Below, piece by piece: positions 23,412 through 23,495 of a stretch of 29,089 nucleotides of DNA. The position numbers and the translations under genes were made by a program. Source of the DNA: a virus (Duplodnaviria > Heunggongvirae > Uroviricota > Caudoviricetes); IMG/VR virus record IMGVR_UViG_2529292726_000018, positions 1-29,089 of that record. One strand, given 5' to 3'. Positions within the stretch are counted from its first letter, which is position 1. Each line of letters begins with the position of its first letter. Under the pieces are notes generated by a model, which was not told the DNA's origin, ran no database searches, and saw only the letters and a list, made by a program, of their open reading frames with translations.

Positions 23412-23495
23412 TCAACCCCAGCGGCAAATCGAATACACCACCAGCGCCACCGCCATCGCAATTCCTACCGTTGTGAATGCTTCAGACCAGGTCAT
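23412..23495 (-). CDS. Candidate small membrane peptide (27 aa) coupled to the upstream gene
   Basis: MTWSEAFTTVGIAMAVALVVYSICRWG. Its ATG overlaps the upstream TGA as ATGA (23495-23492). Hydrophobic core suggests a single transmembrane helix. Below the track cutoff. Confidence 0.3.
   Translation of the reverse strand: MTWSEAFTTVGIAMAVALVVYSICRWG

Follow-up and report, generated by a model that had tools for sequence, protein, structure and literature searches.

The small ORF and its surroundings

The window (the whole stretch of 29,089 nt analysed here) is an E. coli lambdoid prophage, and over the 181 nt around the small ORF described below its identity to E. coli A17 is 100%. The gene order on the minus strand is cII-like, O, DnaC-like, DUF1627, DUF977, a gene for a 167-aa protein and the small ORF, which are followed by a convergent KilA-N gene, hok/sok and nin-type genes. 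The features of this region are:

23492..23995, minus strand: 167-aa gene, phrog_660, a mosaic relative of Ea22/EaA/DUF551-type accessory proteins (profile and sequence comparison)
23505..23510, minus strand: Shine-Dalgarno-like GGAGGA inside the 3' end of the 167-aa gene (from the sequence)
23492..23495, minus strand: ATGA start/stop overlap of the small ORF with the 167-aa gene (window sequence)
23412..23495, minus strand: small ORF of 27 codons plus stop, ATG to TGA, product MTWSEAFTTVGIAMAVALVVYSICRWG*
23427..23477, minus strand: predicted transmembrane core, codons 7-23 (FTTVGIAMAVALVVYSI), which contains the invariant G11xxxA15; Kyte-Doolittle value 2.1 across 17 residues
23377..23401, plus strand: hairpin with T-run, terminator of the convergent KilA-N/BstA-like gene, 10 nt past the small ORF stop
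22263..23415, no strand assigned: 1.15-kb insertion carrying the BstA-like gene, relative to most family contexts
22598-23371, plus strand: convergent KilA-N gene of the BstA abortive-infection family (phrog_6287, E 2.7e-89; PADLOC BstA, E 3e-21)
21920-22278, minus strand: complete hok/sok-type locus (Hok ORF, Rfam sok and promoter-like element)
22278..22250, minus strand: promoter-like TTGGCA-17-TAGAAT, the hok promoter
22073-22243, within the hok/sok locus: Rfam sok match
22075..21920, minus strand: 51-aa Hok ORF (hokD of the window)

The original prediction was that a 27-aa ORF overlaps the 167-aa gene by ATGA, and its coordinates, its frame and the shared ATGA were all verified. The ATG at 23495-23493, which is the first start codon of the frame after the preceding in-frame stop, is followed by 27 codons and a TGA at 23414-23412. 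The TGA of the 167-aa gene is located at 23494-23492, so that the ATGA at 23495-23492 is common to both genes. Upstream of it, a GGAGG (23510-23506) is found 10 nt 5' of the ATG, a spacing which exceeds the optimum. The single hydrophobic helix that had been proposed for the peptide is also predicted by our analysis, with a Kyte-Doolittle mean of 2.1-2.5 over the 15-19 residues of the hydrophobic core.

An ORF of this length could have arisen by chance and have no function. With the dinucleotide composition of the window, 29% of random frames opened by ATGA stay open for at least 27 codons, and the ORF has no annotation in RefSeq. However, only 0.19% of random continuations in the same model are both open and equally hydrophobic. 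In the window, an ATG overlaps the stop of 13 ORFs that are 90 aa or longer, and in our judgement approximately 7 of these 13 overlaps lead into long downstream ORFs resembling real genes. With 13 candidate junctions, about 0.02-0.03 such hydrophobic overlapping ORFs are expected by chance per window. The ATGA overlap by itself is unremarkable, while the overlap together with the helix is remarkable, and it is the comparative evidence that decides. Since this evidence, which is presented in the next section, includes conservation across Escherichia species and two very different phage groups, a functionless chance ORF is highly improbable.

Downstream, the small ORF had been noted to lie just before the terminator of the convergent KilA-N gene, and indeed its stop is 10 nt from the hairpin at 23377-23401. 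We assign this hairpin to the KilA-N gene because its T-run lies on the plus strand; on the minus strand the sequence after the hairpin is CUAAUCAUUU, which is a poor U-tract. Three related loci (L002, L005 and L008) align to the window from 23497 to 23416 and resume at 22262/22255, and the insertion defined in this way separates the small ORF from the hok promoter, its direct neighbour in other phages. In most related phages the hok promoter begins only about 20-30 nt past the stop of the small ORF. As judged from these alignments, the downstream hairpin belongs to the context-specific BstA-like insertion and not to the peptide module. In the E. whittamii prophage L308 the small ORF is also followed by a convergent KilA-N/BstA_C gene.

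No Pfam domain was found in the 167-aa protein, and a fold search with its AF2 model was dropped (pLDDT 58, pTM 0.32). The protein is a patchwork: its segments IALASLEAEP and DLLTCHLDGVT..GWNACR are found again in EaA-type proteins and in proteins with DUF551 (among them P0017 and P0044), and its last approximately 35 residues (LVSQLKK...GLISVEDVLR) form the tail of otherwise different proteins. In the locus L058 this tail is present as a stand-alone ORF of 39 aa.

Conservation and purifying selection of the 27-codon frame

Copies of the peptide gene were gathered with a degenerate DNA pattern scan, in which any spacing between the pattern elements was allowed, and with tblastn. The DNA pattern recovered more than 119 IMG/VR loci, and the resulting family set comprises 133 copies with 53 unique nucleotide sequences in 120 unique contexts. 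In addition, an unbiased set was assembled from loci found through the C-terminal module of the upstream gene, that is, independently of the peptide.

In the family set the ORF has 27 codons in 118 of the 120 unique contexts. The exceptions in length among true members are two independent in-frame deletions of 6 nt and two stop-loss extensions, and no frameshifts were found among the 133 pattern-scan copies. It had been stated that absence or frameshifting of the ORF in relatives which keep the 167-aa gene would speak against the proposal. In the upstream-anchored set, 61 of 63 informative loci harbour the intact 27-codon ORF with ATGA, while one contains a frameshift fusion and one is without the ORF; a nonsense codon is present in one of approximately 43 unique sequences of this set. 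In E. marmotae and E. albertii, too, the homologues of the 167-aa gene are followed by the small ORF. None of the 37 upstream-anchored copies that lie within 70% nucleotide identity of the window ORF has lost the ATG, and the position of the stop is fixed while its codon varies between TAA and TGA. Even copies at 64-69% nucleotide identity retain W3, A6, G11, A15, R25 and W26. Thus, both the overlap and the hydrophobic core, the conservation of which had been suggested as a check, are kept in homologous loci.

The substitutions are of the coding type. The pairwise pN/pS is 0.36 in the frame of the ORF, which is only moderately low, whereas the two alternative reading frames give 0.79 and 1.31. 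When changes were counted along a minimum spanning tree, only at codons left free by the scan pattern, 67 were synonymous and 51 nonsynonymous, 70 of these 118 at third positions, where random placement would give 39 synonymous changes (P<2e-4); the tree only approximates the phylogeny and many sequences are close kin, so the counts overstate the independent events. The upstream-anchored set gave 58 synonymous and 56 nonsynonymous changes (P<2e-4). Between the vequintavirus copy and the window copy there are 11 synonymous and 6 nonsynonymous differences, corresponding to a ratio of 0.18. Together with the conserved hydrophobic core and its Trp/Arg flanks, these patterns show, at the level of sequence comparison, that the small ORF evolves under purifying selection at the protein level, and they agree with the original proposal of a real ORF instead of a chance one. 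Loss of the peptide is nevertheless tolerated, because nonsense, stop-loss and fusion variants exist.

Individual copies with such changes were noted. In L203 (~11050-11133) a damaged copy carries W3 changed from TGG to TAG plus G11V. In L023 (minus strand of the locus) a frameshift has joined approximately 210 codons of upstream sequence to the peptide in one frame, and two IMG/VR copies without the original stop have C-terminal extensions leading to products of 38 and 40 aa.

The conserved 81 nt could alternatively be mainly a nucleotide-level element, i.e. a recombination boundary or linker, or a cis-acting RNA or DNA signal, in which the open frame is incidental. The block is located exactly at the mosaic joint between many unrelated modules, it is better conserved than either flank, and its ACG-ATGACC joint is used also by a different downstream gene (see below). 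Further, codons 20-26 (GTG TAT TCG ATT TGC CGC TGG) are nearly invariant in the lambdoid copies, third positions included. The high nucleotide identity in the ORF and in these codons could be due to recent spread or to an extra constraint at the nucleotide level. On the other hand, both the third-position bias and the synonymous excess are frame-specific, indels are in frame, the length, the start and the stop position are kept though the stop codon varies, and the key residues are kept at 64-69% nucleotide identity. No Rfam family was found over the small ORF, and the region 23200-23700 yielded only one sub-threshold chance match. RNAalifold of 12 diverse copies revealed double-sided changes in 0 of 21 pairs, with a covariation term of -0.76 kcal/mol. 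A role in recombination may moreover be a by-product of the gene and not an alternative to it. Altogether we regard a mere nucleotide element as quite improbable, and a protein-coding gene as the better explanation of the conservation.

The junction with the upstream gene is conserved as well. In 126 of the 133 copies the ATGA closes an upstream ORF of 50 codons or more, and one more copy uses TAATG; the other six are either truncated at a contig end or follow a degraded upstream gene which still keeps the junction. There are two main junction types, GGAGGTGAATCA-ATGA and (GTGGA)GGATGTTTTACG-ATGA, each of which keeps GGAGG/GAGG, while a GTGATGA/ATGATGA junction is found in a subfamily of 28 aa. 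In the family the SD-like GGAGG is located 7-10 nt upstream of the start. The last approximately 12 nt of the upstream gene travel with the peptide, and the rest of the overlap region is unconserved between the junction types. Although a weak G-U-rich hairpin can cover the GGAGG in the window, its folding energies compared to shuffled sequences correspond to z values between -1.2 and +1.2, and it is not common to the other junctions.

We propose that the small ORF would be transcribed at the end of an early array of accessory genes, which in the window would be the rightward early operon with O, DnaC-like, DUF1627, DUF977, the 167-aa gene and the peptide. Ribosomes terminating on the upstream gene would then restart at the small ORF, or they would load on the internal SD. 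Since neither a significant SD-sequestering structure nor a slippery site was found, the dependence of its translation on that of the upstream gene is an inference from the junction. The architecture is that of translationally coupled phage gene pairs with a 4-nt ATGA overlap. Unlike in the usual pairs of this kind, the downstream partner has only 27 codons, the overlap is kept behind many upstream genes, and the junction travels with the small gene.

The same junction could in principle serve a programmed -1 ribosomal frameshift, by which the frame would be a C-terminal transmembrane extension of the upstream protein. Relative to the upstream gene, the small ORF occupies the -1 frame, and this frame has no stop over the approximately 18-21 codons that precede the ATG of the small ORF. 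A GGAGG is located just upstream, and natural fusions exist (L023 and one in the 63-locus anchored set). However, neither junction type (GGAGGTGAATCAATGA or GGATGTTTTACGATGA) contains a slippery heptamer X XXY YYZ, and the overlap is unconserved between them save for its last ~12 nt. In addition, the ATG is retained in all 37 anchored copies (at least 70% nucleotide identity), the SD of the peptide itself is conserved, and the same peptide is found behind unrelated proteins. Such frameshifting is therefore very unlikely, and we consider translation from the ATG of the small ORF to be the probable route.

A mobile cassette and its distribution

Over the 120 unique contexts, the upstream sequences fall into at least 11 unrelated clusters and the downstream sequences into at least 15. 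In the set anchored on the tail of the upstream gene, the mean pairwise identity is 0.745 for the upstream gene, 0.885 for its tail, 0.950 for the small ORF and 0.349 after the stop. These comparisons show that the small ORF is, as far as homology blocks can tell, a discrete mobile cassette which extends from the last codons of the preceding gene to its own stop. It is thus a mosaic module with borders exactly matching a gene of 27 codons.

The upstream genes are of several unrelated kinds, and include DUF551, a coiled-coil protein (933W p77), EaA and proteins with a ...GLISVEDVLR tail. The most frequent downstream neighbour is the hok promoter/locus, which was found in 49 contexts out of the 114 for which sequence past the stop is available; other downstream contexts open with differing terminator-like hairpins. 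In the E. coli prophages L310-L312 (~2076-2552), the tail ...GLVSAEGVLR* and the joint ACG-ATGACC lead into a DUF551 gene of 153-158 aa (MTISTKK...), and there is no peptide. Because the ATGACC joint here opens a different complete gene, we interpret this, on the basis of the sequences, as a cassette swap and not as decay. That ACG-ATGACC can lead into a different gene marks it as a gene-boundary recombination point located exactly at the shared start codon.

A short hydrophobic ORF is not a general companion of DUF551 genes: another such ORF was found in 4 of 121 unique DUF551 contexts, and one of these is a family member. Clusters at 90% headed by DUF551 proteins of 121 and 185 aa were considered as possible fusions and rejected; the representatives end with ...PPQEVNQ and lack the peptide, so that the grouping is a clustering artefact.

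By megablast, a match is present in 1327 of 5426 complete E. coli genomes (~24%), at up to 5 places per genome; many matches span only the ORF, and most stop 4 nt short of its last base. Matches by tblastn were found in 95 phage records, among them 933W, VT2-Sakai (Sp5), many Stx1 and Stx2 phages and the virulent Vequintavirinae. The Vequintavirinae copy has 78% amino-acid identity and sits in the middle of an early gene array. A divergent relative of 28 aa (MMNWPEAF...) is located shortly upstream of xis/int in VT1-Sakai, and a further one (MSW[RP]DAI...) has the same location in PhiR12-type phages. Copies in E. marmotae, E. albertii and E. whittamii were reached via homologues of the 167-aa protein.

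Outside Escherichia and Shigella, the search consisted of tblastn against phage records and one strict pattern scan. In the scan with one genome per species, true matches were found only in E. coli and Shigella flexneri, and the pattern matches in GC-rich taxa (Pirellulaceae, Microbacterium and others) are due to chance, with unrelated translations. A 431-bp contig labelled Xanthomonas pisi (L012, NZ_JPLE01000323.1) contains a 933W-type copy with the E. coli-phage junction, which is probably E. coli phage contamination of the assembly. In the phage vB_Apl-pPE4 (PP818812.1, 12969-13186), recorded with an Actinobacillus host, an E. coli-type tail module is present together with the peptide, with 88% nucleotide and 96% amino-acid identity.

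The small ORF is not listed in any of the RefSeq (PGAP) and GenBank phage annotations which we inspected. With 84 nt including the stop it is below the minimum of Prodigal, which is 90 nt. The exact consensus peptide, which has P4 where the window has S4, can be found in GenBank, where a few submissions list it as 'hypothetical', 'bacteriophage' or 'prophage protein'. For the 27-aa peptide, no Pfam, NCBIfam, PHROG or PADLOC family match and no PDB relative was found; the only library matches are weak and sub-threshold (KdpF, E 0.16; a glycine-zipper region, E 0.041) and are consistent with similar composition and not with homology. A sequence-string search did not find the peptide in the published literature. 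The supplements of the RIBOseq study of strain Sakai do not contain it, with no entry near ECs1245/1246 as judged from locus names and coordinates; that study used uninduced cultures, and the small ORF overlaps an annotated gene. It is also absent from the supplement of a preprint on the microproteome of Enterobacteriaceae. The peptide gene was not found in the K-12 lambdoid cryptic prophages Rac, Qin and DLP12, and this may explain that, to our knowledge, the small-protein screens in K-12 never reported it.

Based on these observations, the 27-codon frame is probably a genuine protein-coding gene, the predicted product of which is a single-pass inner-membrane microprotein of 27 residues belonging to a small, so far unmodelled family which, within the range searched here, is confined to Escherichia/Shigella phages and prophages. 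This uncharacterised small-protein family without an existing model is of a familiar kind, namely a coupled gene for a small membrane protein. Such proteins are systematically under-annotated, and here such a gene is present in about a quarter of the complete E. coli genomes and in reference Shiga-toxin phages.

The predicted membrane peptide and its possible roles

The alignment of the family revealed seven invariant residues, M1, W3, A6, G11, A15, R25 and W26, while Y21, S22 and C24 are nearly invariant. The two tryptophans are 23 residues apart, with E or D at position 5 on one side of the core and R25 on the other. The predicted helix is rich in Ala and Val and only moderately hydrophobic, and most amino-acid replacements in the family are exchanges among A, V, I, T, M and L. 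The invariant residues fit a putative Trp-flanked transmembrane helix with a helix-packing motif (GxxxA), an acidic N-flank and a basic C-flank. In the proposed topology the peptide would insert N-out, with MTW-P/S-E-A, the short acidic N-terminus, on the outer side and the basic C-R-W-G end on the inner side, and W3 and W26 would sit at the two membrane interfaces. The invariant G11xxxA15 face could then act by binding a host or phage membrane protein, or by self-association. Candidate roles are host takeover, superinfection exclusion and membrane perturbation. We rank a modulator of a membrane protein first, a membrane-perturbing toxin second and other roles behind them.

The second of these roles would mean a membrane-damaging toxin, similar to type I toxins or to small holins/pinholins, which is made late in the early programme or upon induction and depolarises the membrane. 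The size, the single hydrophobic helix and the small-xxx-small motif are like those of small membrane toxins, the gene is located directly upstream of hok/sok in 49 of 114 contexts, and some natural copies are inactivated. The Hok/Gef proteins, such as that of hokW/sokW of Sp5 (PMC8621323) and the hokD product of the window, are likewise small, hydrophobic and prophage-encoded, and the paper on hokW-sokW does not mention an ORF like the one described here. Hok has approximately 50 aa, a mok leader frame, the sok antisense RNA, an own promoter and the domain PF01848, none of which applies to the peptide. Unlike in Hok, its expression is deduced from the coupling to the upstream gene. Against a toxin, there is no match to Hok/Gef or to another toxin family, and the gene is without antisense RNA, dedicated promoter or long leader and is coupled to an ordinary upstream gene. 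Many genomes harbour up to five intact copies, and the gene is also found in virulent vequintaviruses in the middle of the early array. Further, it lies outside of the lysis cassette, and the adjacency to hok is broken by insertions like that in the window. A toxin thus appears unlikely.

A holin or another protein of the lysis cassette was rejected, as in the window and in annotated relatives the gene is located in early accessory regions (after the replication genes, before hok/nin, or before xis/int). An antisense similarity to 'LGLFSICRW' near sokW was also dismissed as a chance match: it lacks a start codon, and in the window it is interrupted.

For the first-ranked role, modulation of a membrane protein, the best comparison is provided by small single-pass inner-membrane proteins such as KdpF, AcrZ, MgrB and MgtS (reviewed in PMC12648545). 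Like them, the peptide has less than 50 aa, one hydrophobic helix and no signal peptide, and like them it belongs to the proteins which are often unannotated. Proteins of this type act via helix-helix contacts with larger membrane proteins. In contrast to them, the peptide is without homology to any member of this group, is phage-borne and mobile as a cassette, and its membrane location is a prediction. By analogy with most of the bacterial small membrane proteins characterised so far, our leading guess is that the target modulated by the peptide may be an inner-membrane protein of the host.

It is tempting to speculate further that the Trp-flanked GxxxA helix targets a specific host inner-membrane protein and thereby sways the outcome of the infection, but at present we would give this suggestion only a small chance. 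If it is true, the outcomes affected could be, for example, superinfection exclusion, the choice between lysis and lysogeny, in concert with the Ea22-type genes nearby, or the way in which the adjacent hok system behaves. Superinfection is blocked by T4 Imm and HK97 gp15, which are small inner-membrane proteins of phages. They are likewise phage-encoded and expressed early or from the prophage, but they are larger than the peptide and the analogy is functional only. A specific target would also mean a new phage-host interaction mediated by a peptide that is too short for standard gene callers. A single TGG-to-TAG change removes the peptide without altering the upstream protein, making it a clean candidate for experimental testing. 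Last but not least, the peptide could serve as a handle on tiny membrane peptides in temperate phages, with a possible effect on the biology of Stx phages.

Finally, the peptide gene shares its genomic neighbourhoods with the accessory genes of the exo-xis/ea region (ea22, ea8.5, orf60a-orf73; PMC10834534, PMC8614690), and follows genes of the Ead/Ea22, EaA and DUF551 types. The peptide ORF is mentioned neither in the review of the exo-xis region nor in the paper on the Ea22 structure (PMC10834534, PMC8614690). Unlike the exo-xis proteins, to which it is unrelated in sequence and of which those characterised are soluble, the peptide is predicted to reside in the membrane.
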